A stretch of 32,000 nt of DNA, from NCBI RefSeq assembly GCF_042660085.1, contig NZ_JBHSTI010000008.1, positions 1,080,001 to 1,112,000 of the forward strand. The letters are read 5' to 3'. Below, one piece after another: positions 689 through 26,431 of this stretch. The notes beneath the pieces were generated by a model, which searched no databases, was not told where the DNA came from, and saw nothing but the letters and a program-made list of their open reading frames with translations. A program made the translations under genes and the position numbers. How positions within the stretch are numbered: the first letter of the stretch is position 1; every line of letters begins with the position of its first letter. Source of the stretch: Longivirga aurantiaca (GTDB lineage Bacteria; Actinomycetota; Actinomycetes; S36-B12; CAIYMF01).

Positions 689-1909
689 TCAGGCGCTCAG
701 CGTGCTGGCGCCGTCCGTGGGCAGGAGCTCTGCCGCCAGCAGCGACATCGACGTGAGTATGTCGTTGGGTGAGGCGGCGAGATCGATGTGCCGTACGTGC
801 AGTCGAGGTCCCTCATCGATGACCTGGTGGGTCCGAGCCTCGGGCGGCCCGAACGCATAGATGAGCCAGGCATCGTCCAGGCCGGTAGCGGTGGCGTAGG
901 CGTGCAGCTGATAGAGGTCCGGGTTGGCGCCCGGGCCAGTGTCACGCTTGTACTTGACGTCGCCGACGAACCGCCACGTGCCGTGGTGGTGCCATGACAG
1001 GTCCGGCTTGAGACGCACCCGTCCCTTCACATCCAAACGGAGTGGCGCACAGTGGTCGCCGTCGGGGAACTCCTCCGGGCTCAGGTGGGCCGCTTCGCGC
1101 AACGCCGCGCGAATGAAGTCTTCGAAGACAACGGTGAGATCGATGCGCAGCAAGTCCGTTGATGCGTTTCCGGCACCCAGCTCCGGGCTGGCTCCGCTGA
1201 GCAGGAGCCTGGCGAGCTCGACCGCCGGCCGGTAGTAGCCGTTGAGACGGGTCCAGGTGATGCTCGGGATCCGACTGCGGTGCGGCTGGAGCGGTGTGAC
1301 GTCAGGGAAGGAATCCGTGAGGCGACGCAACTCGCGGCGAGTGGCGGTGTCGCGCAGAGGGAGTCGCGCGAGCAGGAGCGCGGCGGAGAGCAGCAGCTGG
1401 TTCTCGGGAATGTCGTGGTCATGCTGGCAGTACTCGAGGGCAAGAGGTGCGCTTAGGCCAGGTCGGCGTTTGAGCTGCTCGGCGAGGTCGATGCGACCAC
1501 GGACGGTCGGCTGGGTATCGCGTACCTCGTGGTAGCCGGCCAGCAGACCGCGGCCAATGGTGCGGCGGATCGTGCGCAGATAGAGGGTGGCGACCGCGTC
1601 GACGACGTCGACGACGTCGACATGGTCGTCGATCGCCGCCTCGCCGTCCCGCCAGTGGTCAGGATCGGTGGCGTAGCCGAGCAGGAACAGGACGCGACTG
1701 ATCGGGATCTTCGGACGGATCACGATCGCAAGCCCATCGACGGTTCCGGCACCGATGATGTTGCCGGGGGTGACGTCGAACAGGTCGTTAGTCCCGGGGC
1801 TCGGCTGGACGGTGGCGGTGAACACGGTCCGCAGCAGGTCGCGCTGCGGGGGTGTGAGCCGCACGCCGGGGGTGGTGGACCACTCAGTCAGCTGGAGTCG
1901 GGTCGTCAT
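689..1909 (-). CDS. mcrC: McrC-like restriction endonuclease subunit (406 aa)
   Basis: ORF 689..2233 trimmed to the ATG at 1909 (MTTRLQLTEW...), which overlaps the stop of the upstream McrB-like gene by 26 nt. C-terminal PD-(D/E)xK-like motif (PDLSW...GDVKYK...DLYQLHAYA). Lies directly downstream of a McrB-type GTPase. Confidence 0.85.
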   Translation of the reverse strand: MTTRLQLTEWSTTPGVRLTPPQRDLLRTVFTATVQPSPGTNDLFDVTPGNIIGAGTVDGLAIVIRPKIPISRVLFLLGYATDPDHWRDGEAAIDDHVDVVDVVDAVATLYLRTIRRTIGRGLLAGYHEVRDTQPTVRGRIDLAEQLKRRPGLSAPLALEYCQHDHDIPENQLLLSAALLLARLPLRDTATRRELRRLTDSFPDVTPLQPHRSRIPSITWTRLNGYYRPAVELARLLLSGASPELGAGNASTDLLRIDLTVVFEDFIRAALREAAHLSPEEFPDGDHCAPLRLDVKGRVRLKPDLSWHHHGTWRFVGDVKYKRDTGPGANPDLYQLHAYATATGLDDAWLIYAFGPPEARTHQVIDEGPRLHVRHIDLAASPNDILTSMSLLAAELLPTDGASTLSA

Positions 1910-4283
1910 GCGCGATTCCGACCTCCCCTCGGAGAGCGTCGAGCTCGAATGCGCGGACCCGGTCGGGTTGGCCGTAGAAGTGGTCTTCGAGGGTGGGAAG
2001 GATCGCGGCGCTCCAGATCCGTGCGATCCAGGCTTCGTCGAGGTCGTCGCGAATGAAGAAGCTGGGTCCGATCGCGACTGCCGGGTCGTCCAATCGCTGG
2101 TTTGCCCGTGCCACGACGTCGCCGAGCCAGGCCAGGTCCGGGTGACGGTCGGCCAGGTAGCGGGGCAGGACCTCGGAGACGGGTTCGTCGGTGGCGTCGA
2201 AGTGGCGGAAGTAGAAGCGCCGTCGCAAGGCACTGTCGAGCAGAGCGATCGAGCGATCCGCGCTGTTCATAGTGCCGATCAGGAGGAGGTTGTGCGGGAG
2301 CCGGAACGGGGCCTCGGAGTAGAGCAGACGCATGGCTTCGTTGCGGTACTCGAGCAGGAAGTACAGCTCGCCGAACACGCGGGCGATGTTGCCGCGGTTG
2401 ATCTCGTCGACGATCAGGACGTAGTCGTGGGCGGGGTCAGCCGCCGCGCGTGCGGCCAGCTGGATGAGCGGACCCTGGACCAAGTGGAATCCGGCGGTGC
2501 CCTCCTGGGGGCGGAGGCCTTCGATGAAGTCCTCGTAGGCGTACGAGGGATGGAACTGCACCAGGGTGACGCGGTCGGGGCTTCCGGCAATCCAGGCCGC
2601 GAGCTTGCGGGCCACGAAGGTCTTTCCCGTCCCGGGCGGGCCGTAGAAGACGATCTGGCGCTTGTCGTGCAGCAGCTGCACGGTGTCGTCCAAGAAGGTC
2701 GGATCGAGGTAGAGCTCACCGGCCAGGTCCGAGAGTGTGCGTGGCTCGTCGTCGGCCAGCGGGTCATCGTGGACCTTCGGAGTGTCTACCGGCGTAGTGA
2801 CTGGGCCGACGATGGGACCGGTGCCCTTGCCGCTGCGCCATGCCTGCAGGGCCTCCACCTGCGCCGGGGTCCAGGCGGAGTCTGGCTCGACCTGGATCAG
2901 CGTCCACATCAATCCTTGCGCGTCGAGCCGGTCGCGGATCTGCCCTCGAAACCTCGCGTCGGAGGTGTCGACCAGCAGGTCGAGAAACTCCAGGAACCGG
3001 TCGTAGTGCTCTCCGTCGCTGGAGGTCGGCTGCGTCTTGGCGAAGTTGGTGAGCTGGTATGCCTTGTCGACCACACGGGAACGCCAGGTCGGGAACCGGG
3101 TGACGTCGATCGCGCCGAGTAGGAACGATGCGATGCTCAATCGTCCTCCCAACCCGTCAGCTGCCTCGGCGGGGACCAGTCGGCTGAATCGGTCGATCGA
3201 GGCGGACCCGGCGTCGTGCCACAGCGCCTGGAGAGCGGCCGCGGCGTCGTCGCTGTGTTCCTGGGCCCAGGACAGGAACGGGTCGAACGCGCGCCAGGAC
3301 ACCACGTTGGTGTCCTTGAACGCCTCGCGAAGCATCGTTACCCAGTCCCGGCCGTCGTCGACTGCGGCACGCAGGTCGGCCAGTAGGGCGGCGGTGTGCA
3401 GCTTGTAGTCGCGTTCTTCCTGGTCCAGGTCCACGCGGTCGAGGAACCATTCGCCCCAGTTCAGGAACAGCGTCCAGCCGCCGCTGGGCTGCAGCCACTG
3501 CCACCAGTAGGGGCTGCGGTAGAGGTTGGTGAACGCCTGCCCGTCCCAGGACTGGTTCGGCTCCAGGGCCGCACACATCGCAGCGAGCCGCAGCGCCTCG
3601 GGTCGATCGTGGGGGCCAGACAACTGCGGCCAATGAGCCAGGACGAGCTCACGGTGGTCCCTGCTCACCATCGCAGGGAACACGTCGGGGAACAGCAAGT
3701 GCTGCAGGCTGTTGCGCTGGATGTCCGCACCCTGCTCAGGCAGGGAGTCAAGTAGCGCGATGAAGGCTGCGGGGTCATCGAACAACCGTCCTCGCGCAGG
3801 CTGGTCGAGCCGCTTCACCGCGACGTAGAACTCGATGAGCAGGTTGAACTGCTTCCACCGGTAGGAGTTGAACGCCTGACCCGGTCTTACGAGTCCTGCA
3901 TCAAGGCGCCCAGCCAGGTCGTCGGGTATCGCGGACGTGCCGGGGCTGAAACTCAGTACTGTGTTGATGATCTGGCGCTTGCGCGACCCGCTGATCGAGT
4001 CAGACCACGCGACGAGCAGATGCACGTACAGCAACTCGGCAGCTAGCTGGACCTCGGTCGCTCCGGCGCCACCGATCTGGCCGCGAAGCTTGCTGAGGAA
4101 GTCGCCCGAGCCCAGGTCGGGGTTCTCAACGAAGTCCCGCACCAGCCCCTCGCCGTCCACGAGTCCCAGGCGCACCGAGGAGGAGAACAGCGAGCCGTCG
4201 CCGATCAGGCACTCGTCGCGCCACCGCAAGGCCGCGTCGTACACGAGTTGAGCAGAGGGGTACAGGATCCGCGTCGTTGCCAT
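1884..4283 (-). CDS. mcrB: McrB-like AAA+ GTPase restriction subunit with a long N-terminal extension (799 aa)
   Basis: Walker A FYGPPGTGKTF (nt ~2618-2645), Walker B LIVDEINRGN, McrB-type TMNSADRS and RRRF motifs in the C-terminal third. About 540 aa precede the ATPase core with no motif I recognise. Confidence 0.9.
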   Translation of the reverse strand: MATTRILYPSAQLVYDAALRWRDECLIGDGSLFSSSVRLGLVDGEGLVRDFVENPDLGSGDFLSKLRGQIGGAGATEVQLAAELLYVHLLVAWSDSISGSRKRQIINTVLSFSPGTSAIPDDLAGRLDAGLVRPGQAFNSYRWKQFNLLIEFYVAVKRLDQPARGRLFDDPAAFIALLDSLPEQGADIQRNSLQHLLFPDVFPAMVSRDHRELVLAHWPQLSGPHDRPEALRLAAMCAALEPNQSWDGQAFTNLYRSPYWWQWLQPSGGWTLFLNWGEWFLDRVDLDQEERDYKLHTAALLADLRAAVDDGRDWVTMLREAFKDTNVVSWRAFDPFLSWAQEHSDDAAAALQALWHDAGSASIDRFSRLVPAEAADGLGGRLSIASFLLGAIDVTRFPTWRSRVVDKAYQLTNFAKTQPTSSDGEHYDRFLEFLDLLVDTSDARFRGQIRDRLDAQGLMWTLIQVEPDSAWTPAQVEALQAWRSGKGTGPIVGPVTTPVDTPKVHDDPLADDEPRTLSDLAGELYLDPTFLDDTVQLLHDKRQIVFYGPPGTGKTFVARKLAAWIAGSPDRVTLVQFHPSYAYEDFIEGLRPQEGTAGFHLVQGPLIQLAARAAADPAHDYVLIVDEINRGNIARVFGELYFLLEYRNEAMRLLYSEAPFRLPHNLLLIGTMNSADRSIALLDSALRRRFYFRHFDATDEPVSEVLPRYLADRHPDLAWLGDVVARANQRLDDPAVAIGPSFFIRDDLDEAWIARIWSAAILPTLEDHFYGQPDRVRAFELDALRGEVGIAHDDPTPAD

Positions 4284-6854: not shown

Positions 6855-7055
6855 TCAGGTCGTTGCAGAGGGCTTCTCTCGCCCCAGTCGAAGATCCGCG
6901 ACCTTGTGCAACAAACGGCCATAGCCGTCCTTGGTGAGCTTGCGACCTTCCAGAGCCATGTTCCAGGCAATGTCGGCAGCCATGTCGATGTCCGTCTCAG
7001 CCCCGTCGCCTGGGGGCTTCGTCGGGTCATCACGCTGTGGTGAAGTGTCCGTCAT
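6855..7055 (-). CDS. small hypothetical protein (66 aa)
   Basis: ATG ORF in a lower-GC insert. The sequence looks protein-like (AADIAWNMALEGRKLTKDGYGRLLHKV). The purine-rich stretch upstream is about 13 nt from the ATG, which is far for an RBS. No family recognised. Confidence 0.3.
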   Translation of the reverse strand: MTDTSPQRDDPTKPPGDGAETDIDMAADIAWNMALEGRKLTKDGYGRLLHKVADLRLGREKPSATT

Positions 7056-7092
7056 CTTGTCCGCTGTGCCCTCCTCGCCGATCTCGCATCTA

Positions 7093-7110
7093 CCGCCCCT
7101 GACCAGTAGG
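7093..7110 (+). repeat. direct repeat copy 2 (ccgcccctgaccagtagg)
   Basis: 18 of 20 positions shared with 6722..6741. Weaker similarity extends about 12 nt further upstream. Confidence 0.7.
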
Positions 7111-7111
7111 G

Positions 7112-7124
7112 AACAACCTTAGAA
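7112..7124. repeat. inverted repeat, right arm (aacaaccttagaa)
   Basis: Perfect reverse complement of 6800..6812. Directly abuts direct repeat copy 2. Confidence 0.6.
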
Positions 7125-7356
7125 GCCGCACTCGCGCTGGTGAAACGCTGGGAACCGCGTCCTGGTTAGACTCATTGCGAGTCCAACTCGTCTCCGGAAG
7201 CCATTGCGCCACAAGGGGTTAGACGTCGGTGGAGTCATAGACATGAGCCATAGTGAGAGCCGGGTCGCGGCCGACCTCGGCGACGGTCACGTTCGCGTAG
7301 GACGGAGCCGATGTCATCGGCCACCACGGCCAGCCTCGGCTTGTAGCCTGACCATC

Positions 7357-7869
7357 ATGTGGGGCCTCGAGATGTCGCGAGACGATCGCGCGTTCAGTCA
7401 CATTGCGCACGAAGTGCACATGTGTGCCTACTCTGCCTTCCGCATGTTGAGCAGTGATGACGAGAACGATCGAGTTGCCTACCTTGAGTGCGAACTCTTG
7501 CACGCGCGAGCTCTCGAAGAGTTCCTCGTGGTGACGCGGCGCAGGCCGCGCGACGACGACATGCTTCGCACGCATTTCGCACCCGAGTGGACACCGTCGC
7601 CCGACGATGCCGTCAGCCGGCTTGGTGAAAGGCGGGAGACGATCAACAAGTACCTCGCCCACCTCACCTGGGCGAGAGTGGACGAACCGGATGCGCCGGC
7701 ATGGTCCTTCATAGAGATCGCAGACGACATCGTCGCAGTGGCAGCGGCATGGGTGGGTCACGTAACGAGGAGCGAAGGTAGGCTCCCAGACGACCCAGAT
7801 ATCAAAGCGCTCATCCTCGCCAACGCCGTGTCAGATGCGCAACGCTGGCTGGGGATGGCACCACGTTGA
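7357..7869 (+). CDS. hypothetical helical protein (170 aa)
   Basis: ORF 7204..7869 trimmed to the ATG at 7357 (MSRDD at 7372 is also possible). Codon and amino-acid composition are better than for the antisense ORF 7219..7761. No motif recognised. Confidence 0.55.
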   Translation: MWGLEMSRDDRAFSHIAHEVHMCAYSAFRMLSSDDENDRVAYLECELLHARALEEFLVVTRRRPRDDDMLRTHFAPEWTPSPDDAVSRLGERRETINKYLAHLTWARVDEPDAPAWSFIEIADDIVAVAAAWVGHVTRSEGRLPDDPDIKALILANAVSDAQRWLGMAPR

Positions 7870-7974
7870 TAGCGGGATGGACACGACGTTGCTGGAGTCT
7901 GGAGCCGACCACCATCGTGCGCTGCGTGCCACGCGACCGCTTGCGAGAGAACGGCTAGCTGGGAGCCGTACCTC

Positions 7975-9474
7975 ATGAACCCATCGCCGCGTCTGCCGTT
8001 TGCGTGGCTCTCGTCCATACGCGGTCGAGTTCAGGCGATGGTTGTATCGAGTATGTGCGAGGTGGACCTGGTGGAGGCGGCATCGCGCAAGTCCTGGGCC
8101 AAGAGGAGCAACGTCCCTCCTGATCTTCTTGCCACCGGACTGCTCACTGACCTCATCGGGCCGGAGGCGGCGTTGCTGAGCTTGCGGCTGGGCACAGCCC
8201 ACCTCGCGGGTGTTGCCGACGTCTCGAACCCGCCGACGGGGCCGGCGACCCTCTTTCCAACTGGTTCACATCTACAGGTCACGGTTCGGCACGACCTCAT
8301 GGAGCACGGTCGCTTCGACTGGTCTGGACAGTTGCTCGACTTGGGCAGCAGCGGCAGCGGATTCGGTTTCGACAACTCCCGTCAATGGAAGGTCAGCGAC
8401 TTCGACCTCAACATCGGCAAGACTCGCGTCCACGTCGTTCACGCCAGTGCCCAGCGCTCGACGGACCTGTTTGACCCGCAACCACAGTTCGGCGGCATGT
8501 GCGAGGGAATCGAATGGGGCGATCAAGCGGTCGCACGTCATTGGCGCGTCTGGCTCGTCGGCGTACCGAAGCCGCACGAGCAGGTGACCACAACCCTTGC
8601 CCAGGTCCAGGTTTCGTTGGTTACCGACCGACGCGCAGCCGAACCCAACCATGGCGACAGCCAACCGCCACCTGACCTGCCCTACGTCACACAAGTAGCG
8701 CTGGACTTCGGCCATGACGTGGGGGCTGCTCAGGTCGACGAACTCCTTGAACGTCACCTCATGTGGCTCCTTGACATCTACTCCGGTCGCAGAGTTATTC
8801 CTCTCGCAGTGCTGCGCATCGCCCCCGACGGCACGGCTATGGGAGGGCACTGTCGCGACTACGGCCGACCGCTGGTGCGCAGAAGTCGCCGAGCCGTATC
8901 CAGCAACGATCTACAGGCGTTTCTCAACGATGTCGTACCCACCTGGGACGCAATGACGGAAGACGATCGCCACGTAGTCCGAGTCGCCACTGGGGTCAGG
9001 CACGCTTCCTCACAGATCGAATCGGAGGCGTCAGTAGTTCTCGCCGCGACCGCGCTCGAGCTCCTCGCCGGTGAGTGGCTCCCGCCCACCAAGGCAAGCT
9101 ACGAGCTCACGAGGAGGCAGAAGAAGGACATCTCAGATGCGCTTACGAGCGCCGCTCAGGGAATCGCTCCTAACAGCGAGTTCGCCAGCAAGATCACCCA
9201 GATTGCAGGGAACATGTTCCGCCGCCCCGCCGCTGACCAACTTGGTCGCCTTCTGGGTCATCTCCAGGTGCCCATGAGCGAAGCCGAGGTTGGCGACTTC
9301 GTGAAGCTGAGGAACGATCTCATCCACGGCCGCCTGGCACAACGCAGCACGCAGGACAAGACGGAAGGCATGCTCCGAGGGCAGGCCATGCTGATGGGTT
9401 GCCTCCTCAGCCGGCTGGGTTACCGTGGCTCGGTCTACAACGAGGCCAGCCATCGGAACTACCGCCTGCCCTAG
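7975..9474 (+). CDS. hypothetical protein with a C-terminal HEPN-like domain (499 aa)
   Basis: The C-terminal helical region ends in FVKLRNDLIHGR, an Rx4H HEPN-type motif. The ~350-aa N-terminal region is unassigned. The domain order resembles ApeA-type HEPN proteins (tentative). The start is uncertain; 8038 is also possible. Confidence 0.65.
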   Translation: MNPSPRLPFAWLSSIRGRVQAMVVSSMCEVDLVEAASRKSWAKRSNVPPDLLATGLLTDLIGPEAALLSLRLGTAHLAGVADVSNPPTGPATLFPTGSHLQVTVRHDLMEHGRFDWSGQLLDLGSSGSGFGFDNSRQWKVSDFDLNIGKTRVHVVHASAQRSTDLFDPQPQFGGMCEGIEWGDQAVARHWRVWLVGVPKPHEQVTTTLAQVQVSLVTDRRAAEPNHGDSQPPPDLPYVTQVALDFGHDVGAAQVDELLERHLMWLLDIYSGRRVIPLAVLRIAPDGTAMGGHCRDYGRPLVRRSRRAVSSNDLQAFLNDVVPTWDAMTEDDRHVVRVATGVRHASSQIESEASVVLAATALELLAGEWLPPTKASYELTRRQKKDISDALTSAAQGIAPNSEFASKITQIAGNMFRRPAADQLGRLLGHLQVPMSEAEVGDFVKLRNDLIHGRLAQRSTQDKTEGMLRGQAMLMGCLLSRLGYRGSVYNEASHRNYRLP

Positions 9475-9550
9475 GTGCGCCTGACCGGCGACACCTATTT
9501 CGTTGAGTGAACCGCCGTCTGCGCTGACGTCCCCTGCCAGGATCTCACCC

Positions 9551-10384
9551 ATGCGCCAGAGCGATCTGTACGAACTCCTGACCGGTGACGACAACGACTG
9601 CGTGTACCACTACACGTCGCAGCCAGGTTTGCACGCCATCCTTGCGACCGGATCACTTCGTCTCAGCACCTTCAATAGCCTGAACGATCCTCGTGAGAAC
9701 AAGAAGTGGATGCCCGACGAGTTGCTGGGCCACGCCGGCGACGTCGACGATGCCTGGTTCGAGGCAGACCGAGCCATGGAGGAGGCGGTCGATCGCTTGC
9801 TACGGCGGGGCGTCAGAGTCGGCTGTTTCACCGAGACGCGATCAAGTGGCTCTGGGCATGGGCTCGCCAAGGGCTGGGCTCGGCCGGCTATGTGGGCTCA
9901 CTACGGGGCCGCCCATCAGGGGGCATGTCTGGTCTTCGACCGCGGAGCTATTGGTCAAGCCGTGTCGGATCACGTCCCCGTCCGAGACGGGAACCTGACG
10001 ATGTGCGGTGCCGTGGACTACACGGATCGTGAGTTGACCTTGCCTTACCTCGGCGCTCCATCGACTGTGGTCGAACTGAAGGAGTTGTTGGACGCGGTGA
10101 CCATGGAACGTGACGTCGTTCCGAGCCTGTACTTGCAGAAGAACACGGACTGGTCAGGTGAGCGTGAATGGCGTGTGCTGGTCAACCAGTGGGACCTGCC
10201 TGAATCAAACCTGGACGAGCCGTTGTACGTCCCGTGGGAGGGAGCACTGCTGGGGGTCGTCCTAGGTTCTGAGTATGGTCCACGCGTTGTCGCGGAACGA
10301 CTCTCAGGCGGTTTGCCCCTGCTGACCTGCAGTTGGACGTCGCGTCGCGCAACGTTGCAGCACTCGACAGGCGCAGCTGGATAA
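9551..10384 (+). CDS. DUF2971-family protein (277 aa)
   Basis: Trimmed to the ATG at 9551. N-terminal VYHYTSQPGLHAILATGSLRLSTFNSLNDPRE matches the DUF2971 signature (YHYT...L...NDP.E). Confidence 0.8.
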   Translation: MRQSDLYELLTGDDNDCVYHYTSQPGLHAILATGSLRLSTFNSLNDPRENKKWMPDELLGHAGDVDDAWFEADRAMEEAVDRLLRRGVRVGCFTETRSSGSGHGLAKGWARPAMWAHYGAAHQGACLVFDRGAIGQAVSDHVPVRDGNLTMCGAVDYTDRELTLPYLGAPSTVVELKELLDAVTMERDVVPSLYLQKNTDWSGEREWRVLVNQWDLPESNLDEPLYVPWEGALLGVVLGSEYGPRVVAERLSGGLPLLTCSWTSRRATLQHSTGAAG

Positions 10385-10640
10385 CTTGAGTTGAGCTGCT
10401 GCACTCGATAAGCCGTGCACAGTCAGTGGCACGCGACAACCTCAAGGAATGAGTCCGGCTTTCGATCTCGTGACGCTTGCCGAGCCGGCGATCACCGGGC
10501 TGAACCTCACGGACACTGATCGACCGCCCCATCGGTACAGCTTCGGCGAGTATCCGGGCCCCATGGAGCGATGGTCGACTGAGCCCTCGATCGGACGGCT
10601 GGGGCGTCGGCCACCGCGTCGGACTGCTTCGACGGCACGT

Positions 10641-11831
10641 CTACAAAGGCGCGGGGAGTCGCCGAATCGTTCCCGGTTCGAGCCGCAGGCGCGAGTTCGC
10701 GTCGCATGAGCCGGCGTCGCACATGGCGGCGCTGGTGAGGAAGAACACGGCTACATCAGCGTCTCGATCCCTGCTGGAACGCCACAAGATGCCGTCCACG
10801 GGCAGGTCGTAGCGGAGGTGCTCAGCAATGACCTGGGTAGGGATGTATTCCAGGTTCTGTCGGTCGTCTGGACTGGCTACCTCGGTGACGTCCTTGACGA
10901 AGTCGAGGAGGAACTCGACCGGGCCACGGAGATGCCGGCGCGCTGGGTCGAAGAGCGAAGGAACCTCGGGTAGGTCGCGCAGATCCACGACGCTGAGATC
11001 CGTCAGTTGGGTGAACATTCCCACGGTTGCCTCGTCAGTTGGCCCCGAGTAGCCAGCTACCTCCCTATGAGCGCCCTCATCAGTAGAGGCACCGTAGAAC
11101 GCCCCGATGCCTTTCGGGCTCATTCGATTGTCGCGGGCAATCGAGTCCGGGGGTGAGCCGAGGCTGGCAGCGTCATCGTGCCGATCCCCGGGTCCGTGGA
11201 CGCGCGCACGCCACCAGGTGGTGCCAGCCGGTAGCCGCTTCGTCAGACCGACTTCGTTAGCCGCGGCTACGACCGCAGCGGGCACCGCGTGCATAGGGAT
11301 GCTGCCTGCGCCGTCCGCGGTGGAGTCGTCAAGCGTTAGGAATGTGTACCGCCTCTGATGCTTCACATAGTCGCGAAACGCCTGCCACCCCCACCGAAGG
11401 GCCTCAGCTGGCATTGCTGCATATGGGTCCTTCTGACACCAGAGCTCATCGCTGATCGCCCACAGGATGGCTTCTAGGACGCCCTGCTGTTCGGTGATCT
11501 CGAAATCATCCAGCAGGTCGTAGGTGTCGAAGGTCGTTACGCGATACCCGCCCTCTCGGCCATCGAAGCCGGCGCCTTGTGCCGGGTCCTCGTACTCGTA
11601 ACGAAGACCCTCGACAATCAGCTGGACGACCCGCTCCAACGGCGCCGAGGCGTCGGGCGACTGTGGCGACAAGCCGCAGAAGCTACACGCATCTTGACCG
11701 CCTTCCGAACGTACAAAGGCGACCAGCCATGGCTCAGACAAGCATCGGGAACACACGATTCCATCGGTGTCGCGGTAGCCGCGTGCCTCGATCGCCTCGG
11801 CGTAGCGCTTGGTGAGTCCCATAGCACTCAT
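10641..11831 (-). CDS. RES-domain protein with an N-terminal zinc-ribbon-containing domain (396 aa)
   Basis: The core WWRARV...NRMSPKGIGAFYGAS...GAHREV fits the RES (Arg-Glu-Ser) domain. The N-terminus carries CSRC...CSFC. The domain order resembles HEPN/RES-NTD1 + RES proteins. Confidence 0.8.
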   Translation of the reverse strand: MSAMGLTKRYAEAIEARGYRDTDGIVCSRCLSEPWLVAFVRSEGGQDACSFCGLSPQSPDASAPLERVVQLIVEGLRYEYEDPAQGAGFDGREGGYRVTTFDTYDLLDDFEITEQQGVLEAILWAISDELWCQKDPYAAMPAEALRWGWQAFRDYVKHQRRYTFLTLDDSTADGAGSIPMHAVPAAVVAAANEVGLTKRLPAGTTWWRARVHGPGDRHDDAASLGSPPDSIARDNRMSPKGIGAFYGASTDEGAHREVAGYSGPTDEATVGMFTQLTDLSVVDLRDLPEVPSLFDPARRHLRGPVEFLLDFVKDVTEVASPDDRQNLEYIPTQVIAEHLRYDLPVDGILWRSSRDRDADVAVFFLTSAAMCDAGSCDANSRLRLEPGTIRRLPAPL

Positions 11832-11955
11832 TCAACCTGACGTCGTCAGCCCCAACTTGCCGACTCGTCGACCGGGCCGCGGCGCGCAGGAAGGAAGGGA
11901 ATGTCATGGTGGCTGGGGCCCTGGGTCTACGTTGCTTTCGACCGGAGGTGGACGA

Positions 11956-12132
11956 GTGACAAGCACTGGCAGGAACGACAAGCGCTCGGTTCGATGGGTT
12001 AGCCCGAGGGGCGTGGTCCACACCCTGACGTGCGGAGCCATCGGGGACGGCGGGCGATACGTCATCCTCGCGGACCTGCCCTCCGGGCTCGAGGACTGCA
12101 CCGACTGCGGCGGATCGGAAGCTCGAGATTGA
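11956..12132 (+). CDS. possible small protein (58 aa)
   Basis: GTG at 11956 lies 7 nt after GGAGG (11944-11948). In frame with track ORF 11809..12132. Contains C..C (CTDC). No family recognised. Confidence 0.3.
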   Translation: MTSTGRNDKRSVRWVSPRGVVHTLTCGAIGDGGRYVILADLPSGLEDCTDCGGSEARD

Positions 12133-12395
12133 GCGAAGCTGGCTGTACCCCTCGCACCTGCGACAACTGACAGCAATCAGTGTGTCTCGCATGTCCATCT
12201 TTAGGCCAACGTTGCCGACCACCTCGAGGACGTCGACGGCGTGTGACGCAAGCTCGCAAGCGGCATGGCCGGACGCCCGGCGTCTGATACTTCCCGTGAC
12301 CCCAGGCGCCCCGCTGCATCCGCTAGCGCCCCGGTCTGCACCGCTCGCAGCCCGACGCCCGGCTCGTTGTCGGTGCCCCCGGGTACACCAGTGGT

Positions 12396-13187
12396 GTGAT
12401 CACGCATGAGGACCTCGACTGGTGGCTCGAGACCGCCCCCGCCTTGACCTGGACGTTCGCCAAGACATACGCCGACACGGCCCCGCACGAGTACGTCGTC
12501 GCCGGGCGCAACGGCTGCCCTCTGAGCCATGGCGACTTCGTACGGGCGGCCAAGGTCATCGCCACGTTCGGCCGCCCCGCCAAGTTCTACTCGATGACCG
12601 GCATCTACCTCACAAGCCGGGACGGGGGACTGAAGTGGTGGACCATGGACGCCGACCTCGACAGCACCGACCTGATCAACCAGGCCACCACCGACCGCGT
12701 CTACGGACCCCAGGACGCCCCCAACACCCGCACCGGGTCCACCGTTCCGGAGGACGCACTCGCAACCGAGTACGACCGCGCCCGCGACCGCCGGTGCGAC
12801 GAGATCCTTGCTGAGCACATCCGCCGCCTCTTCCCGGAGGGCAGTCCAAGGACGCTGGACATCGGATGCGGCACCGGTCTGCCCCTGGACTTCGGCGTCA
12901 TCGACGCCGGCACGTACACCGGCCTGGATCACAGCACCGCCATGCTCAACATGCTCGTGCGGAAGCACCCGCACGTACGGGCTCTCATCCCTGCGTCCTG
13001 GAACGAGGGCGTCGTCATCGGTGCACCGTTCGACCTTGTCCTCAACATCGAAGGCCCGGACGTGGACCCCGACCAGATGCAGCGACGGAGCTCCGGCTGG
13101 GTGATCACCGCGCGCGACGGAGACGTCGCTGTGGTGCCTGGGAAGGCGCGCGACACACGGTCCGGCACGGTTAGCGTCTCGCCATGA
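12396..13187 (+). CDS. class I SAM-dependent methyltransferase-like protein with an unassigned N-terminal domain (263 aa)
   Basis: Motif I LDIGCGTGLP (nt ~12855-12884) followed by TGLDHS. I saw no DPPY/NPPY or PC-type DNA-methyltransferase motif. The N-terminal ~110 aa (WTFAKTYADTAPHEYVV...KWWTMD) is conserved-looking but I cannot name it. Confidence 0.8.
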   Translation: MITHEDLDWWLETAPALTWTFAKTYADTAPHEYVVAGRNGCPLSHGDFVRAAKVIATFGRPAKFYSMTGIYLTSRDGGLKWWTMDADLDSTDLINQATTDRVYGPQDAPNTRTGSTVPEDALATEYDRARDRRCDEILAEHIRRLFPEGSPRTLDIGCGTGLPLDFGVIDAGTYTGLDHSTAMLNMLVRKHPHVRALIPASWNEGVVIGAPFDLVLNIEGPDVDPDQMQRRSSGWVITARDGDVAVVPGKARDTRSGTVSVSP

Positions 13188-14683
13188 CGGATTCGACTCC
13201 TGTACCGAACCAGGCCGGGGGACTGCTGGCCGCGCTGGTCCCGTTCGGAGTGCTGCGTCAGCCCGAGGTCGCCCTCACCACCGGGATCTGTTGGGTACTT
13301 GGCCTGGACGGGGCGGCGGGTGCGCTCGACGCTCTCATCGCCCGAAGCGGCATCACCCCGGACAGCGCAGGCCGATGGAGGGGCGAGGTGGTCGGTGACG
13401 GTGGACGCTCCGATCTCGAGTACGCCTGGGGCGATCCCCCGACAACTCGAGTCATCGTCGAGGCCAAGATCGGCCACAGCCTCACCCCGGAGCAGTTGGT
13501 GGGCTACGCCGACCGGCTGCCTGACACAGGTGGGCTCCTGGTCGTGCTGGCACCGGCCGCGCGCAGAGCCGAGGCGCTGGAAGTGGTAGCTCGCTGCCGA
13601 GACCTCACCGCCGGCCCGGCCACGTTCGCCGTCTGGACCTACGACGAGGTCCTGGAGCGGCTCGAAGCCGCCCTGCCCCATAGCGGCGACGTCGCCCAGC
13701 TGCGCGGCCTCGTCCAAGCGCACAACGCCACGGACATCGACCCGTTCCTCCCCGACGAGCTCCTCGAAGCCAACGCGTCGCGTCGTGAGGACGTGTGGTG
13801 GGTCGTCGACCACGCCTCATTCGGCATCCGCGAATCCCGGCAGCCCTCCGGCACCGACTGGAACCTCCTGCATCGTCGGTACCTGCCCGTCGGCAACTAC
13901 AGCGCGGCCGTCGCCGTCGGCGTCGGGAGGAAGGATCCGGGCAACGACCCGACTCGGCCATGGGCGTGGCTCCGTGTCGCCGGTGCCAGCGCTCACGGCC
14001 GCCTCGCTCGACGCGCGCTCGCCAGCATCAGACCCGGAACTGAGGAGACCAAGGACGAGACTTGGCTGCCGCTGAGGATCGAGCCGGGCCTCTACGGTAG
14101 CCAAGCGGCGGAGCGACTCCGATCAGCGCTGGAGAGCCTCATCGACGACCTTGCGGCCGCCATCACCGTCGAGATGGAGCACCAGCTTGACCAGGCCCGC
14201 CATCTCGACACCGCCATGCTCGACGGCGTCCTGGGTATCGGTCCCCTCGAAGCGAACGATCTGCTTGCCGGCTCCGAGCGGCGCCATGAGGACATCTGGA
14301 CCCTGCTGACCGAAGCCAGCCGCCCCCTTTACCCGGACCGGATCTACCCGGTCCAGACCAGCGACGAGGACTACGAGCGCGTGCGCTACATGCGGGTTGG
14401 CGCGTCGGAGGCGCACATCGCGACGTGCCTCCTGCGGCGGGGGAGGAACGACTCCGCTCCGGCCGCGTGGCTTCGGGTGCACCGGAGCACCTCACATGCC
14501 GAGATCGGTCGTCGTGTTCTCGAGGAACTGGCTCCAGGTCAAGTGGTCGACGATCCCAACGGGTGGGCGGTTCCCGTGCGCATCCCCACCGGTGTCGGTG
14601 GGCCGGCGATGCTCGCCGAGGTCCATGCACAGATCAGCGAGCTGTTCACGCGCTTCGCCGCGTCCATCGTTCGAGGCTCGTAG
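13184..14683 (+). CDS. PD-(D/E)xK nuclease-like protein with an internally duplicated C-terminal region (499 aa)
   Basis: Its ATG overlaps the upstream stop (ATGA at 13184-13187). N-terminal GRSDLEY...RVIVEAKIG is a D...ExK core. Two tandem ~150-aa segments each begin LL..(R)RED(V/I)W and contain AWLRV...SH...RR.L...PG...W.(L/V)P.RI..G. Confidence 0.75.
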   Translation: MTDSTPVPNQAGGLLAALVPFGVLRQPEVALTTGICWVLGLDGAAGALDALIARSGITPDSAGRWRGEVVGDGGRSDLEYAWGDPPTTRVIVEAKIGHSLTPEQLVGYADRLPDTGGLLVVLAPAARRAEALEVVARCRDLTAGPATFAVWTYDEVLERLEAALPHSGDVAQLRGLVQAHNATDIDPFLPDELLEANASRREDVWWVVDHASFGIRESRQPSGTDWNLLHRRYLPVGNYSAAVAVGVGRKDPGNDPTRPWAWLRVAGASAHGRLARRALASIRPGTEETKDETWLPLRIEPGLYGSQAAERLRSALESLIDDLAAAITVEMEHQLDQARHLDTAMLDGVLGIGPLEANDLLAGSERRHEDIWTLLTEASRPLYPDRIYPVQTSDEDYERVRYMRVGASEAHIATCLLRRGRNDSAPAAWLRVHRSTSHAEIGRRVLEELAPGQVVDDPNGWAVPVRIPTGVGGPAMLAEVHAQISELFTRFAASIVRGS

Positions 14684-14857
14684 AGACATCGGAGATCGAG
14701 CGCGCGGAAGTCGAGTCAGGCGATGCGCTCCTGCCCCGCGGCGGCGGTGGCGCCTTCGCTGTCGGACCCGGGCGAGATCATGAGGTCAACGGACCGTCCA
14801 GACGATGCTGGCAACCATCAGCGTCGGGGCACAGCCGTCGAGATCTGAGGAGTCACC

Positions 14858-15802
14858 ATGGATGCCCGAGAGGCCAAGCGGCTTGCCAACGAGCACTTGC
14901 GTGGTTCTCGCCTGACTGCATCCCGGGCCTCGCGCCACCGCGACGCCTGGGTCGTGTCCTACGTCGACGCGGACAACCCGGACGTGATGCTCGACGGCGG
15001 AGGCCTCATCGTGACGATGGACGGAGCGGTGATCGACGTAAGCTCCGTGCCCGGTGAGATCGACCGCGTGCTCGACGAGAGAGCACCGCGAGGGGAGGAT
15101 CCCGACCTACCGCGCGACGAGGCGGAGGAGCTGCGCGCCCTCATCGCGGCTCGGCTGCCCTGGCCCGGCGTCCTGGAGGAACCCGTCGAAGCGTTCGCCG
15201 CCGTCGAGCAGCTGCGCAGTGCTGGTCGTGAGGTCTTCCCGGCGCGCGGGCTGGAACTCGCCGCGCTCGCGCTGGTGCCCTTCCAAGAAGTGCGTGTGGT
15301 GATCGTCGGCCTTGACCCGTATCCGACGCCGGGTCATGCGATGGGACTGGCGTTCTCCGTTCCACCCGAAGTGCGGCCGCTGCCGGCGGGCGTGCGGAGC
15401 ATCCACGCCGCAATGCGGCACGACGGCTTCGACCCTCCCGACCACGGCGACCTGTCCGGCTGGGCCAGGCAGGGGGTGCTTCTGCTGAACCGGGCACTCA
15501 CCTACGAACGAGGACGGAAGGCTGGAGCGCACCTGCCCATCTGGCGAGACTTCACGGACCAGGTGATCCGAGTGCTAAACGAGCGGGACGAGCCGGTGGT
15601 GTTCGTTCTGTGGGGGAACGAGGCGCAGAAGGTCGGCGCCCTCGTCGACGCCTCGCACCACCACACCGTGACGGCACCGCATCCTTCTTCCCGGGGGGCC
15701 TACCGGAAGGCATCCCAGGACGCGGGGACGTTCACCACGGTCAACCGGCTCCTCGGTGCAGAGATCCACTGGGAACAGGCAGGCGGGCGCTCCCACTCGT
15801 AG
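14858..15802 (+). CDS. uracil-DNA glycosylase family 1 paralogue with an extra N-terminal domain (314 aa)
   Basis: The C-terminal ~220 aa matches the Ung layout: VRVVIVGLDPYPTPGHAMGLAFSV (canonical GQDPY), GVLLLNRAL, VLWGN, APHPSSRG (canonical HPSPLS). The N-terminal ~95 aa (AKRLANEHL...WVVSY...LDGGGLIVTMDGAVIDV) looks YrhB/immunity-protein-like, which is tentative. Confidence 0.9.
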   Translation: MDAREAKRLANEHLRGSRLTASRASRHRDAWVVSYVDADNPDVMLDGGGLIVTMDGAVIDVSSVPGEIDRVLDERAPRGEDPDLPRDEAEELRALIAARLPWPGVLEEPVEAFAAVEQLRSAGREVFPARGLELAALALVPFQEVRVVIVGLDPYPTPGHAMGLAFSVPPEVRPLPAGVRSIHAAMRHDGFDPPDHGDLSGWARQGVLLLNRALTYERGRKAGAHLPIWRDFTDQVIRVLNERDEPVVFVLWGNEAQKVGALVDASHHHTVTAPHPSSRGAYRKASQDAGTFTTVNRLLGAEIHWEQAGGRSHS

Positions 15803-15931
15803 GTTCGCCAGAAGCAGTCGGACCACCAGGGACGGAACGTTCCGCGGGTCGTCAGCCGCAATGTCATCGTGACTGTCGGATGGACATTGATTGACCGACG
15901 ACACTAACCCTGAGTACGTGGCGGTCTAGCG

Positions 15932-18139
15932 ATGGACAGCAGAGAATCGCGGGACAACTTCCTCGACGTCTTCTTCGGGCCTGGCAATGACCTCGGGATA
16001 GACCCGAACACCATCGAGGGCGCTGATCCATCGCACAACTTCCTGAAGGACCTGATTCACGACGTGAGGGAAGGTTCGCCGTGGCCCTGGCTCTTGCCTC
16101 GGCGGGTAGGTGACGGAGCACAGCCAACCTGGTACGCCATTGCCGCCGACTACGCCGATTTCCGACGCCTTGGCGCTGAGTTGGCCGCAGTGACAGGCGA
16201 TCCGTACTCGGACTTCTCTCCCGAAGCGGCATCGCTCGTATCGTCGGATCCAGTCGAGTTCGCGATCTTGAGTCTCGGTGCTAACGCCCACGCATACCGA
16301 TTCACTGCGTCGCCAGGACAGGTGGTCCCACTTCGAATCGCCCTGGAACGACTTCACCGCGCCTGGACTCTCCGACCGAAGCGCGGGTGGGTCCGCGTTC
16401 GCCCGTTGGGGCGCGTTCTACGAGACTTCGAACTTGCCTTGGCTGGGCACAAGTACGAGTCGGCGGTCGAGGCGATCGGGGAGATCGAGCGAAACCGGCA
16501 ATTGACGGCGACCAACCTCCTCTTTCTGCGCTTCCGGTTGGCAGCGACCTTCGAAGATCCACGAGACGCACTCAACTTGCCGGATGTGGACACGCTCATC
16601 ACCATCAGGCGACCCCTCGCAGTGACGACTGCGCTTCAGCAGATCGTCTTCGATGCAAATCTGGTCGATACCGATGGGCCGGTGCCTGTTGACCAGGCCA
16701 TCGAAATCTTCAGTCGGGACTTGGCCCAGTCATACGGTCCACTGTTCACCACCCTCAGAGCGAGCGACGACGCGTCGGCCGTCCGCCTGCAGATGCTCGC
16801 CACAGTCAACAGCGCTCGGCCAAACGAGGCGTTCGCTGACGAGGCGCTTGCGCGACCCTGGAACGCGGGTGTTCGGTCTTGGTTGCAGGCCGTTTGGGAT
16901 CGGCGCCAGCAGCGCTCCGACTCAGCGCGTACGGCGACCCAGAACTTCCAACTCGGCGATCTGGACGGGGCCTTCGCGGTCGCTCTCGTTGATGAACCGA
17001 GCCAACTGCGCGCGAAGATCCTCCTGGTTTCAGCAGTCTCCATTGGTACGAAAGACGCGGCACAGTCTGCGCTCGATGCTTTCGATGCACTGTCGCTGGA
17101 GGAGCAGGGGCAACTTGGGCTCGACGGTCTGGTCAAACTCGCCCTACTGGAACTCCGCGAGCGGACTCGCTTCCTTCCAAGCACGTGGGCGGACTGGTTC
17201 GATCGCATTGCGCAGCACCCCCATCGAGAGACCATCGACTTGCTGGACGAGGCGCTGCCAGGCTGGATGGCGTCGGAACTGGACTCTGATCAAGGTGTTG
17301 CGGCCCTCACCAACCTGTTCCTGGCAACCCGCCCGGGCGATCAGATGGCTCTCGTTGCCGACGCCGTTCCTAGAGCACTGACCTACTGCCAACGGTCGGG
17401 CGCTTCCGACACACGCTTGGCGCCACTTCATCATGCGCTGCTGGCCGTCCTCACATACGAGTCTGATCTGACCGCTACCGACCTGAGCACCATCTCTGAG
17501 ATCGCCGCGACTGTTCTTGGCTGCGGGATGGATGAGTCGCAGTACTCGGCGCTGCTAAGAGACCTGTTGGACGTCTGGACGCGCGTGAAGTCCTGGCGCC
17601 GCTGCGATTGGGCGGCCGACGTGCTGGACGCCGTTGTTTCGTCGCCCGCACCCGTGCCTGCCGAGCGTGATGCATTCGTGGTCGACCTCTACTCCCAATT
17701 GACTGCATACGCCGATCGTGTGAACGAGACCCAGCGCGTGTTGCTTCGCCTCCTTGGTCGGGAGGCGAGCCAACCAACCGAAATCTGGTCCTCACCCACA
17801 GAATCCGAGGACGAGATTGGTGGCACTGAGTCGTCTCCACTGTCGGGGTTGACCGTTGGCATCTACACGCTGGACGAGGGTGCGGCCGCCACAGTCCGAG
17901 GGTGGATTCTGGAGGTCGCTCCGTCGGCCCGCGTGGTGCTGAACCATGAACACGATGCCTCCGAGCGACTCACGGCGATGGTGAGAAGCAGCGATATCGT
18001 CGTTGTGGGGTGGGCGACGGCGAAGCACGCCGCCACCAATCACATCCGTGACGTGAAGCCGGACAGCACGCAAGTGGTCATGGCTCAAGGTCGCGGGGCG
18101 ACTGGTCTATTTCGAGCAGTCTTGTCTGCGATGGCGTAG
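15932..18139 (+). CDS. large hypothetical protein (735 aa)
   Basis: Long ORF with coding-type composition, mostly helical-looking. The C-terminal ~100 aa (LTVGIYTLDE...SSDIVVVGWATAKHAATNHIRD...QVVMAQGRGATG) looks like a small Rossmann-like alpha/beta module reminiscent of DUF2325 (tentative). Confidence 0.75.
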   Translation: MDSRESRDNFLDVFFGPGNDLGIDPNTIEGADPSHNFLKDLIHDVREGSPWPWLLPRRVGDGAQPTWYAIAADYADFRRLGAELAAVTGDPYSDFSPEAASLVSSDPVEFAILSLGANAHAYRFTASPGQVVPLRIALERLHRAWTLRPKRGWVRVRPLGRVLRDFELALAGHKYESAVEAIGEIERNRQLTATNLLFLRFRLAATFEDPRDALNLPDVDTLITIRRPLAVTTALQQIVFDANLVDTDGPVPVDQAIEIFSRDLAQSYGPLFTTLRASDDASAVRLQMLATVNSARPNEAFADEALARPWNAGVRSWLQAVWDRRQQRSDSARTATQNFQLGDLDGAFAVALVDEPSQLRAKILLVSAVSIGTKDAAQSALDAFDALSLEEQGQLGLDGLVKLALLELRERTRFLPSTWADWFDRIAQHPHRETIDLLDEALPGWMASELDSDQGVAALTNLFLATRPGDQMALVADAVPRALTYCQRSGASDTRLAPLHHALLAVLTYESDLTATDLSTISEIAATVLGCGMDESQYSALLRDLLDVWTRVKSWRRCDWAADVLDAVVSSPAPVPAERDAFVVDLYSQLTAYADRVNETQRVLLRLLGREASQPTEIWSSPTESEDEIGGTESSPLSGLTVGIYTLDEGAAATVRGWILEVAPSARVVLNHEHDASERLTAMVRSSDIVVVGWATAKHAATNHIRDVKPDSTQVVMAQGRGATGLFRAVLSAMA

Positions 18140-19447: not shown

Positions 19448-19580
19448 GGGGGCCCCCTCGTCGCTTCCGCCCATCGGTCGAGGGGCGGCGGATCTTCCTC
19501 CGGGGGCACCGTGCGACGAGCTGCGCGGTTGCCAGGCGACCAGCCGGAGGGCTTGTGGTCGCGCTTCTTGATCTGGGTGA
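19448..19580 (-). promoter_or_regulatory. candidate riboswitch leader with SAM-I/SAM-IV-like architecture (copy 1)
   Basis: On the minus strand: GAUC/GAUC (P1). GCGACC...GGUCGC (P2). GGCAACC-hairpin-GGUGCC (P3 with a bulged A). CCGGAGG is complementary to CCUCCGG in the P2 loop. CCGCCC...GGGCGG hairpin. The 3' ACGAG is complementary to the P3 loop and overlaps the SD. The helices are kept by compensatory changes in copy 2. Confidence 0.55.
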
Positions 19581-19585
19581 ACTGT

Positions 19586-20512
19586 ATGCCGGACCACCGA
19601 CAACGCGTCTGGCACAGTGGCCGTGTGGGGGTTGATCCGGTCGAGCGGCTGCTCGCGCTGCAGCAGTACCGGCACAACGGGGCCCGGGTGCCGCACAAGC
19701 CGCTGCTCGTTCTGCTGGCGCTCCAGAAGCTTGCGACGACGGGCTCGAGCGACCTCGCCTGGAGCGAGGCCGAGGACCGTCTTGCCGGACTGATCGCGGA
19801 GTTCGGCCCCACGACGAAGACGAGTCGGCCTCAGAGCGCGGCCTACCCGTTCACGCGACTCCGCGCGGACGGCGTGTGGGCGTTGTCAGTTGATGTGCCC
19901 GACGACCTAGTCACGCCACTGCGCGAGACCGACGTCCACGGCCGGCTCGATCCGGCGATCGACGCGGCGCTCATCCAGGACCCTCGACGGCTGGAGGGAG
20001 TAGTGCGCAGCCTGGTCGACGCTCAGTTCCCCAGCACGATCGCGCCCGACGTTCTGCTGGCTGTCGGGTTCGACCCGGAGCTGCTCGCACCGGGCTTGGC
20101 CGCGGTGACGCCGGAGGAGCGCAAGCGCAGCGTTGCTTGGCGAGACGCGATCGTGCGCGCCTGGGACGGCGCCTGCGCCTTCTGCGGCTATGACGGATCG
20201 CTGGGCGGAGCGCCGGTCGGGATCGAGGCCGCCCATGTGCGCTGGTTCAAGGTCGGCGGCCCCGACGAGCTCGACAACGGGCTCGCGCTCTGCTCCTTGC
20301 ACCACAAACTCTTCGACCGCGGCGCCCTCGGGCTGTCACCGGATGCGCGGGTGCAGGTGTCGGAGCACTTCCGGGCATCTGGTGTTGGCAAGCAGGTCTA
20401 CGACCTTCACGGCCGGGAGCTCCGGCCGCGGCCGGGCGCTCAGTTGCCCGCGCCGGTCCACGTCGAGTGGCACCGCACCCAGGTCTTCAGGGGCGATCCG
20501 CTCGCTGCCTGA
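19586..20512 (+). CDS. HNH_2-type endonuclease with an N-terminal winged-helix-like domain (Type IV / McrA-like, 308 aa)
   Basis: Trimmed to the ATG at 19586. N-terminal YRHNGARVPHKPLLVLLALQKL...FGP...YPFTRLRADGVWAL. C-terminal CAFCGYDG...IEAAHVRWFKVGGPDELDNGLALCSLHHKLFDRG is an HNH_2 motif. Confidence 0.8.
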   Translation: MPDHRQRVWHSGRVGVDPVERLLALQQYRHNGARVPHKPLLVLLALQKLATTGSSDLAWSEAEDRLAGLIAEFGPTTKTSRPQSAAYPFTRLRADGVWALSVDVPDDLVTPLRETDVHGRLDPAIDAALIQDPRRLEGVVRSLVDAQFPSTIAPDVLLAVGFDPELLAPGLAAVTPEERKRSVAWRDAIVRAWDGACAFCGYDGSLGGAPVGIEAAHVRWFKVGGPDELDNGLALCSLHHKLFDRGALGLSPDARVQVSEHFRASGVGKQVYDLHGRELRPRPGAQLPAPVHVEWHRTQVFRGDPLAA

Positions 20513-26295: not shown

Positions 26296-26431
26296 GCCGA
26301 CTCCGTCCGCGTCGCTTCCGCCCCCGTCGGTCGAGGGGGCGGCTGATCTTCCTCCGGGGGCACCGTGCGACGAGTCGCGCGGTTGCCAGGCGGCCAGCCG
26401 GAGGGCTTGTGGCCGCGCTTCGTGATCTGGG
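26296..26431 (-). promoter_or_regulatory. second, orphan copy of the riboswitch-like element
   Basis: By eye it is roughly nine-tenths identical to 19461..19577, while the flanks diverge. An ATG at 26295 lies downstream on the minus strand, but that ORF runs into the 3' end of the convergent DUF429 gene. Confidence 0.5.

Follow-up and report, generated by a model that had tools for sequence, protein, structure and literature searches.

The locus analysed here lies within a 32,000-nucleotide stretch (hereafter the window) of contig C8 of the 3.67-Mb genome (96% complete) of the high-GC actinobacterium Longivirga aurantiaca. It comprises a gene for a predicted methyltransferase, a gene for a putative nuclease whose start codon overlaps the stop codon of the first, and a gene for a paralogue of the uracil-DNA glycosylase (UDG) Ung. 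An earlier note had described the first two genes as a restriction-modification (R-M)-like or modification-dependent pair built from unusual parts; it had missed the Ung paralogue, and the unit is a three-gene cassette. The features of the cassette are listed below with their position in the window, their strand and the evidence from which they were defined (aa, amino acids; SAM, S-adenosylmethionine).

12366..15903, + strand: mobile cassette of 3.5 kb with the methyltransferase, the nuclease-like protein and the Ung paralogue (blastn, GC)
12396..13187, + strand: methyltransferase gene, 263 aa, GTG start; an N-terminal unnamed domain and a minimal class I SAM-methyltransferase domain
12396..12740, + strand: N-terminal domain, aa 1-115 (alignments, profile search, fold match)
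12855..12878, + strand: SAM-binding motif I, LDIGCGTG, aa 154-161 (sequence)
13184..13187, + strand: ATGA stop/start overlap (sequence)
13184..14683, + strand: gene of the nuclease-like protein, 499 aa, ATG start, 23 homologues
13184..13753, + strand: putative PD-(D/E)xK domain, aa 1-190 (invariant residues, predicted topology)
13412-13414, 13460-13462 and 13466-13468, + strand: candidate catalytic residues D77, E93 and K95, to which E28 is added
13766..14218, + strand: C-terminal repeat 1, aa ~195-345, of no known fold family (hhalign)
14246..14680, + strand: C-terminal repeat 2, aa ~355-499 (hhalign, tblastn)
14858..15802, + strand: accessory paralogue of Ung (family-1 UDG), extended N-terminally by ~110 aa (matches to the UDG model of Pfam and to uracil-DNA glycosylase models of NCBIfam)
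15857..15903, no strand: conserved 47-bp element at the distal cassette edge, between the Ung paralogue and dpdD

The two proteins encoded by the pair

The GTG at 12396 is the earliest start possible for the methyltransferase gene, and the MIT..DL opening of its product is common to its homologues, of which 271 were found. The motif LDIGCGTG, picked out in the earlier note, is present at aa 154-161, and its residues G157, G159 and G161, along with D178, are invariant in an alignment of 34 homologues. The AlphaFold (AF2) model of the protein (predicted local distance difference test, pLDDT, 92; predicted template-modelling score, pTM, 0.89) displays a minimal fold with six predicted strands, and its Foldseek matches to TylM1, CalS10 and RlmA (E ~1e-6, probability 1.0, ~140 columns) bear out the class I assignment. 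Residues ~118-250 also match the class I methyltransferases TylM1, CalS10, DesVI, RlmA, Bud23 and PmtA, with profile E-values down to 4e-7. The Pfam model Methyltransf_25 scores below threshold (19.4 bits against a cut-off of 27), and most homologues carry precomputed Pfam matches. Judged by motif I, D178 and the Rossmann-like fold of the model, the protein is a predicted class I SAM-dependent methyltransferase. The 263-aa translation lacks the (D/N/S)PP(Y/F/W) motif, the PC(Q) motif with its catalytic Cys and the ENV motif, in agreement with the earlier remark that no DNA-methyltransferase catalytic motif can be seen.

The 499-aa reading frame was also confirmed, and its assignment to the PD-(D/E)xK group has been supported in part. 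E28, D77, E93 and K95 are invariant in the alignments of 23 full-length sequences and of 14 N-terminal domains. In the AF2 model (pLDDT 88.5), a predicted helix (27-39) carrying E28 is followed by strands 64-71, 74-82 (with D77) and 87-94 (with E93), a second helix (102-111) and a further strand (117-123); this alpha-beta-beta-beta-alpha-beta topology, together with the four invariant residues, predicts a core of the restriction-endonuclease type. The fold matches of the whole model in Foldseek are weak (MUS81-EME1, EcoT38I and 3ijm; E 0.2-0.7, probability <=0.4), and sequence and profile searches of Pfam, PADLOC, NCBIfam and PHROG families and of solved structures gave no match. The residues and the topology suggest a putative PD-(D/E)xK nuclease.

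The C-terminal part of the protein consists of a ~150-aa domain repeated in tandem, as evident from the alignment of repeat 1 to repeat 2 (hhalign probability 99.9%, E 3e-36); several homologues likewise display tblastn cross-matches between their own two C-terminal halves. A ParB/DUF262-like nature of these repeats, which would have unified the nuclease partners of the methyltransferase described below, was ruled out (hhalign probability 0.1-0.7%).

Co-inheritance of the pair and mobility of the cassette

Loci fetched for comparison carry L numbers. The 4-nt overlap is retained in every paired locus, namely the window, the metagenomic contigs L124-127, L161, L128/L162 and L002, and translational coupling of the methyltransferase and the nuclease is plausible from this arrangement. 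The earlier note had gone further to stoichiometric co-expression; the coupling part of that statement agrees with the overlap in all paired relatives, whereas the word stoichiometric went beyond what an overlap indicates. When 45 methyltransferase homologues were placed in a maximum-likelihood tree, the paired ones came out as a single clade (100/95), the sister of which is an unpaired homologue. The nuclease tree likewise unites all six paired sequences in a clade (99) and leaves the eight known solitary ones outside it. The synonymous divergence (dS) of methyltransferase and nuclease is nearly the same, being 0.25 and 0.23 as compared to L124 and 0.89 and 0.93 as compared to L128. The ratio of non-synonymous to synonymous divergence (dN/dS) ranges from 0.13 to 0.37, indicating purifying selection on all three cassette genes. 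The single clades and the equal dS values show that the pairing of methyltransferase and nuclease arose once and has since been kept under purifying selection.

The pairing is, however, narrow. The methyltransferase family is itself rare, having been found in one of 401 sampled genomes of the phylum, which is the window's own genome; one of 24 same-genus genomes holds a homologue (46% identity), which is unpaired, and none of the 24 matches the pair at the DNA level. Co-conservation with this nuclease is limited to one small clade of about 5 lineages. None of the 38 reference-genome loci and 35 viral loci fetched has this nuclease downstream of the methyltransferase, and the methyltransferase of L129 (60% identity) stands without it. 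Beyond the paired clade the homologues of the nuclease (<=47% overall identity) are solitary in the loci examined (L001, L003, L131, L132, L134 and L136), which shows that the nuclease family needs no such methyltransferase for the survival of its host. These solitary homologues sit in variable or defence regions; no recurrent partner was found around them among the loci compared, nor was a methyltransferase remnant 5' of them, even at E<=5. Phage and plasmid collections yielded no nuclease homologue. At L002 the methyltransferase (7073-7866) is split by one frameshift near 7440-7460 next to an intact nuclease, and this may reflect either a pseudogene or an indel of long-read assembly. The methyltransferase domain of L002 is only 34% identical to that of the window, as compared to 72% for the N-terminal domain.

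One of the solitary nuclease homologues, in Cellulomonas sp. Root930 (L001:1-16542), stands between a DO-GTPase2 gene and a SNF2 helicase with a SACS-like protein; an MZB (DUF1998) gene and a helicase lie upstream. The region is another defence island.

The separate occurrence of the two families is the basis of the main rival explanation. It holds that two independent single-gene modules, one an orphan or anti-restriction methyltransferase of phage origin, the other a nuclease sufficient in itself and regulated internally (Type IV-like or sensor-gated), were joined once by chance in a defence-island hotspot, where they are co-transcribed and mutually independent. Each family is mostly found without the other, the nuclease has no recurrent neighbour besides the methyltransferase, and the methyltransferase occurs in a few loci directly after a serine recombinase, in integrative elements. 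The frameshift at L002 and the faster evolution of the methyltransferase (dN/dS 0.32 as compared to 0.13 for the nuclease, both against L124) agree with it as well. On the other hand, neither gene has been lost at any locus of the paired clade, the ATGA overlap persists to a dS of ~0.9 and beyond, and the methyltransferase has a second, independent and recurrent link to nuclease genes, of the GmrSD-like type described below, which is unlikely to be due to chance. Chance joining of independent genes is regarded as somewhat unlikely.

The extent of the cassette has been traced by comparing the window with the metagenomic contigs. DNA identity with L124-127 begins 30 nt 5' of the methyltransferase start; positions 12366-15773 match L124 5971-9378 over 3,408 bp with 90.3% identity (blastn), and identity with L124 resumes at 15857-15903 (47 bp, 98%; blastn). 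The upstream genes of L124-127, coding for a PLD-like protein, an SNF2-like helicase and a trypsin-like protein, are unlike those of the window, and L161 carries the three cassette genes as in the window behind yet another neighbour. The GC content of the block is 0.67-0.70, as compared to 0.62-0.63 in the flanks. On this DNA comparison the cassette is a horizontally mobile block, since its flanks differ between loci.

The Ung paralogue accompanies the pair in three lineages. It adjoins the pair in L124/L125/L127, with 87-91% identity, and also in L161, where the first 51 aa are 76% identical; L128/L162 and L002 hold the pair without it. Its score of 157.1 exceeds the NF003588 cut-off of 143, and its TIGR00628 score of 158-159 stays below the cut-off of 185.75. 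The canonical Ung, encoded elsewhere in the genome (G000:C8:345849-346439), scores 188.8, and the presence of this enzyme makes the paralogue of the cassette accessory. Two of its motifs are altered, GQDPYH reading GLDPYP and HPSPLS reading HPSSRG. The 47-bp element beyond it bears short inverted repeats. Its copies in L124, in L125 and in the same-genus genome G409 are 98% identical to it, that of G409 lying ~1.2 kb beyond the McrBC homologues there. The element may be a border mark of the hotspot or a regulatory site.

The cassette is set in a defence island, the other members of which are listed below.

689-4283: McrC/McrB homologues
10641-11831, - strand: HEPN_RES_NTD1+RES protein
15932-18139: orphan DpdD
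ending at 20512: phosphorothioate-dependent restriction endonuclease homologue
elsewhere in the island: HNH protein
elsewhere in the island: DUF2971/PDC-S31 protein
elsewhere in the island: ADP-ribosylglycohydrolase

Around the cassette (12000-16000) the GC content changes in a mosaic manner, the parts 7000-12000 and 16000-18000 of the window being the GC-poorer ones; this mosaic fits an island put together from separately acquired blocks. Two SAM-IV riboswitches were also recorded in the window, both on the - strand, at 19456-19573 (64 bits) and 26307-26427 (58 bits). A stretch of L128 (394-487) is 86-89% identical to the SAM-IV stretch and lies ~4 kb from the methyltransferase-nuclease pair of that locus, which suggests an island synteny common to L128 and the window.

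Relatives of the methyltransferase and of its N-terminal domain

The first ~110 aa of the methyltransferase had been described earlier as a conserved-looking domain that could not be named, and this description holds. Within the family the N-terminal domain is better conserved than the methyltransferase domain, A22, T24, P30, H31, Y33, W82 and N95 being invariant among the aligned members and W19, Y25, A26, A29 and Y71 nearly so. Pfam gives no match to it even at E<=10, NCBIfam and PADLOC give none either, PHROGs has no model for it, and sequence and profile comparison with the PDB returned only insignificant matches (best E 0.084). A stand-alone, unnamed viral protein of 93 aa matches its fold (template-modelling score, TM, 0.69); all other Foldseek matches of the whole methyltransferase model were to methyltransferase domains. 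A profile of the domain retrieved 3,488 cluster representatives at E<=1e-3. Among the best 149 of these, 58% are of <=140 aa and thus represent the stand-alone domain, and 13% carry a methyltransferase domain, the two domains standing in either order; split versions, with methyltransferase-only and domain-only genes adjoining, exist as well. The relatives are spread over phages, bacteria of the candidate phyla radiation (Saccharibacteria and other Patescibacteria), Firmicutes and Actinomycetota. Other fused forms of the domain were recorded at L079:5710-6987 (with a CAT-like acetyltransferase), L063:5779-6579 (with DUF1653) and L072:5287-6279 (with an unassigned N-terminal region of ~230 aa), in metagenome-assembled genomes of rumen Clostridiales and of Planctomycetota. 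Neither the domain nor the methyltransferase-nuclease pair was found described in the literature searched, and the same applies to a link between the methyltransferase and GmrSD.

The viral relatives place the domain and the methyltransferase in cassettes of the IbrA/IbrB type (PAPS-reductase/ParB), where the closest viral relatives of the methyltransferase (43-50% identity) also sit. In 31 of the 35 viral loci a PAPS-reductase/DUF3440 gene lies 0.006-2.6 kb from the domain or the methyltransferase, together with ParB-like genes, upstream of the terminase genes. The order of genes in these cassettes is the domain (with or without the methyltransferase), GNAT, sometimes an unassigned ~200-aa protein, PAPS-reductase/DUF3440, two to three ParB-like genes and the small and large terminase subunits; one of the ~200-aa unassigned proteins has a faint match to a glycosyltransferase region. 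The end of the genome of Microbacterium phage Hendrix likewise carries, in this order, a glucosyltransferase, this methyltransferase, an N-acyltransferase and a PAPS reductase. A stand-alone gene of ~100 aa for the domain opens the phage cassettes at L096:3268-9015, L102:652-6181, L103, L115, L117, L119 and L120, which continue with GNAT, PAPS-reductase/DUF3440 and two to three ParB-like genes and end directly 5' of the terminase genes.

In cells a second context is recurrent. At least 14 actinobacterial loci, from several methyltransferase clades and host families, have the methyltransferase next to two GmrSD-like (DUF262/DUF1524) genes, with which it is either co-directional or tightly convergent. 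The neighbourhood consists of the methyltransferase, a ~600-aa GmrSD_N+GmrSD_C protein and a ~780-aa GmrSD_N protein; loci of this type are L010, L013, L014, L016, L021, L025-L027, L030-L033 and L038 (for example L031:5986-10889), from Actinomycetota and one Chloroflexota metagenome-assembled genome. The methyltransferase with its two GmrSD-like genes is a candidate for an undescribed modification/restriction module. The genome of the window holds neither a DUF3440 nor a GmrSD_N gene.

Taken by their neighbouring genes, the contexts of the family are DNA-centred and not biosynthetic. Both contexts fit a nucleic-acid-directed role with exchangeable nuclease partners. The earlier note had named, as evidence that would speak against its view, a biosynthetic setting of the methyltransferase and a lack of co-conservation with the nuclease. 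On the first count the family does not lie in biosynthetic clusters; on the second, co-conservation does not reach beyond the small clade described above.

Two further rival explanations bear on the substrate of the methyltransferase. The enzyme could be a regulator which gates the nuclease by methylating RNA, a nucleotide-like small molecule or a protein, possibly the nuclease itself, for example as a sensor of SAM level or infection or as an antitoxin-like brake. The resemblance of its methyltransferase domain to small-molecule, peptide and rRNA methyltransferases favours such a role, as do the fusions of the N-terminal domain to CAT-like acetyltransferase and DUF1653 and its proximity to GNAT genes, acetyltransferase-type tailoring enzymes being known to serve non-DNA substrates in many systems, and the two SAM-IV riboswitches of the island. 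However, the home context of the family is DNA-centred throughout, consisting of ParB-like, terminase and PP-loop enzyme genes in phages and of DUF262 nucleases in cells, and the solitary nucleases show that a brake is unnecessary. A regulator is considered unlikely.

The other explanation supposes that the cassette targets modified phage DNA, the N-terminal domain recognizing the IbrA/IbrB-type modification and the methyltransferase converting it to a substrate for the nuclease and the glycosylase. The position of the closest viral relatives in IbrA/IbrB-type cassettes, the lack of a DUF3440 gene in the host genome and the membership of a glycosylase in the cassette are consistent with this scheme. 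It is purely inferential, and we consider it very unlikely.

A broader proposal can be made for the domain itself. It might be an undescribed nucleic-acid-targeting adaptor, possibly one that reads modified bases, which recruits methyl-, acetyl- and glycosyltransferases to DNA in the IbrA/IbrB-type hypermodification cassettes of phages. Cells would then have acquired the methyltransferase fusion repeatedly, to serve as the 'M' of new R-M-like systems in which the effectors can be exchanged, being either GmrSD-like pairs or the PD-(D/E)xK protein with the Ung paralogue, and the methyltransferase would represent a new DNA-directed class. The proposal is rather unlikely.

Function of the pair and comparison with known systems

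The reading favoured here, with a probability of roughly 40%, is that the pair is an R-M-like module with a swapped effector. The recurrence of exchangeable nuclease neighbours in the family and the stable coupling in the paired clade are what would be expected of the modification gene of R-M-like systems whose effectors have been swapped. The R-M-like pair of the earlier note is accordingly retained in so far as the two genes are conserved, co-inherited, overlapping and placed in a defence island; the solitary nuclease homologues show that it is no obligate classical R-M system.

The pair would form the core of a small, horizontally moving, R-M-like defence cassette made of non-canonical parts. 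Its methyltransferase would stem from a family of phages and mobile elements, and the N-terminal domain may serve as a targeting or substrate-binding module for tailoring enzymes in systems directed at nucleic acids. The methyltransferase would use SAM to mark host DNA or a DNA-borne group, and the coupled PD-(D/E)xK protein would be the effector that cuts unmarked or foreign DNA, sensing being left to its two duplicated C-terminal domains. The Ung-type glycosylase might add a second attack on foreign DNA. DNA as the substrate, the nuclease activity and the logic of self and non-self are all inferred in this scheme.

Several observations weigh against it. Besides the missing catalytic motifs, no DNA methyltransferase is found among the PDB sequence or fold matches of the methyltransferase, and the solved structures closest to it are those of enzymes with sugars, lipids, peptides or rRNA as substrates. 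The fold assignment of the nuclease is without statistical support, and no PADLOC model matches either the methyltransferase or the 499-aa protein. To these are added the absence of this nuclease downstream of the methyltransferase in the reference-genome and viral loci, its solitary homologues and the frameshift at L002. The likeness to TylM1, CalS10, DesVI, RlmA, Bud23 and PmtA, which are the best structural and sequence matches, concerns the methyltransferase domain only, at ~20-25% identity; these enzymes are devoid of the N-terminal domain, and the context in the window is neither biosynthetic nor ribosomal.

Two features speak against a classical obligate Type II system, namely the mostly solitary occurrence of the nuclease family and the lack of known DNA-methyltransferase chemistry in the methyltransferase. 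The cassette shares with Type II systems the adjacent, presumably co-transcribed genes of a methyltransferase and a D..ExK protein, the position in a defence island and the mobility as a block. It differs from them in that its methyltransferase, a member of the generic Methyltransf_25/11/12 group, has neither (D/N/S)PP(Y/F/W) nor PC/ENV motifs, and in that the nuclease, usually solitary, has two extra duplicated domains and a glycosylase gene alongside.

Phage cassettes of the IbrA/IbrB (YbdN/YbdM) type have the methyltransferase and the N-terminal domain as regular accessory members, as evident from the viral contigs and Hendrix. In the window, by contrast, no ParB-like gene stands beside the methyltransferase, which has been uncoupled from such a cassette and joined to a nuclease. 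There are also modification modules whose partner is a DUF262/DUF1524 nuclease of the GmrSD/SspE type, SspABCD-SspE being an example, and the arrangement of the methyltransferase relatives with two GmrSD-like genes resembles this combination of a modification gene with a sensing nuclease. The partner in the window is, however, PD-(D/E)xK-like and unrelated to ParB/DUF262 (hhalign probability <1%). Brig1 is reportedly an antiviral glycosylase of the UDG superfamily. The likeness lies in a UDG-family enzyme being accessory cargo in a defence island, whereas the cassette codes for a family-1 Ung paralogue that is extended at its N terminus.

Should the two genes of the pair prove independent, what remains is a mobile cassette with clear limits in a hotspot of defence genes. 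Activity on DNA, on the other hand, would place the methyltransferase among DNA-modifying enzymes but in neither the known amino- nor the known C5-methyltransferase classes, with at least two kinds of nuclease partner, and it would point to a modification/restriction logic missed by the current catalogues of defence systems. The N-terminal domain provides a handle on the widespread IbrA/IbrB-type phage cassettes and marks the tailoring enzymes that belong there. The most interesting element of the locus is this unnamed domain, which ties an R-M-like cassette to the IbrA/IbrB-type cassettes of phages.

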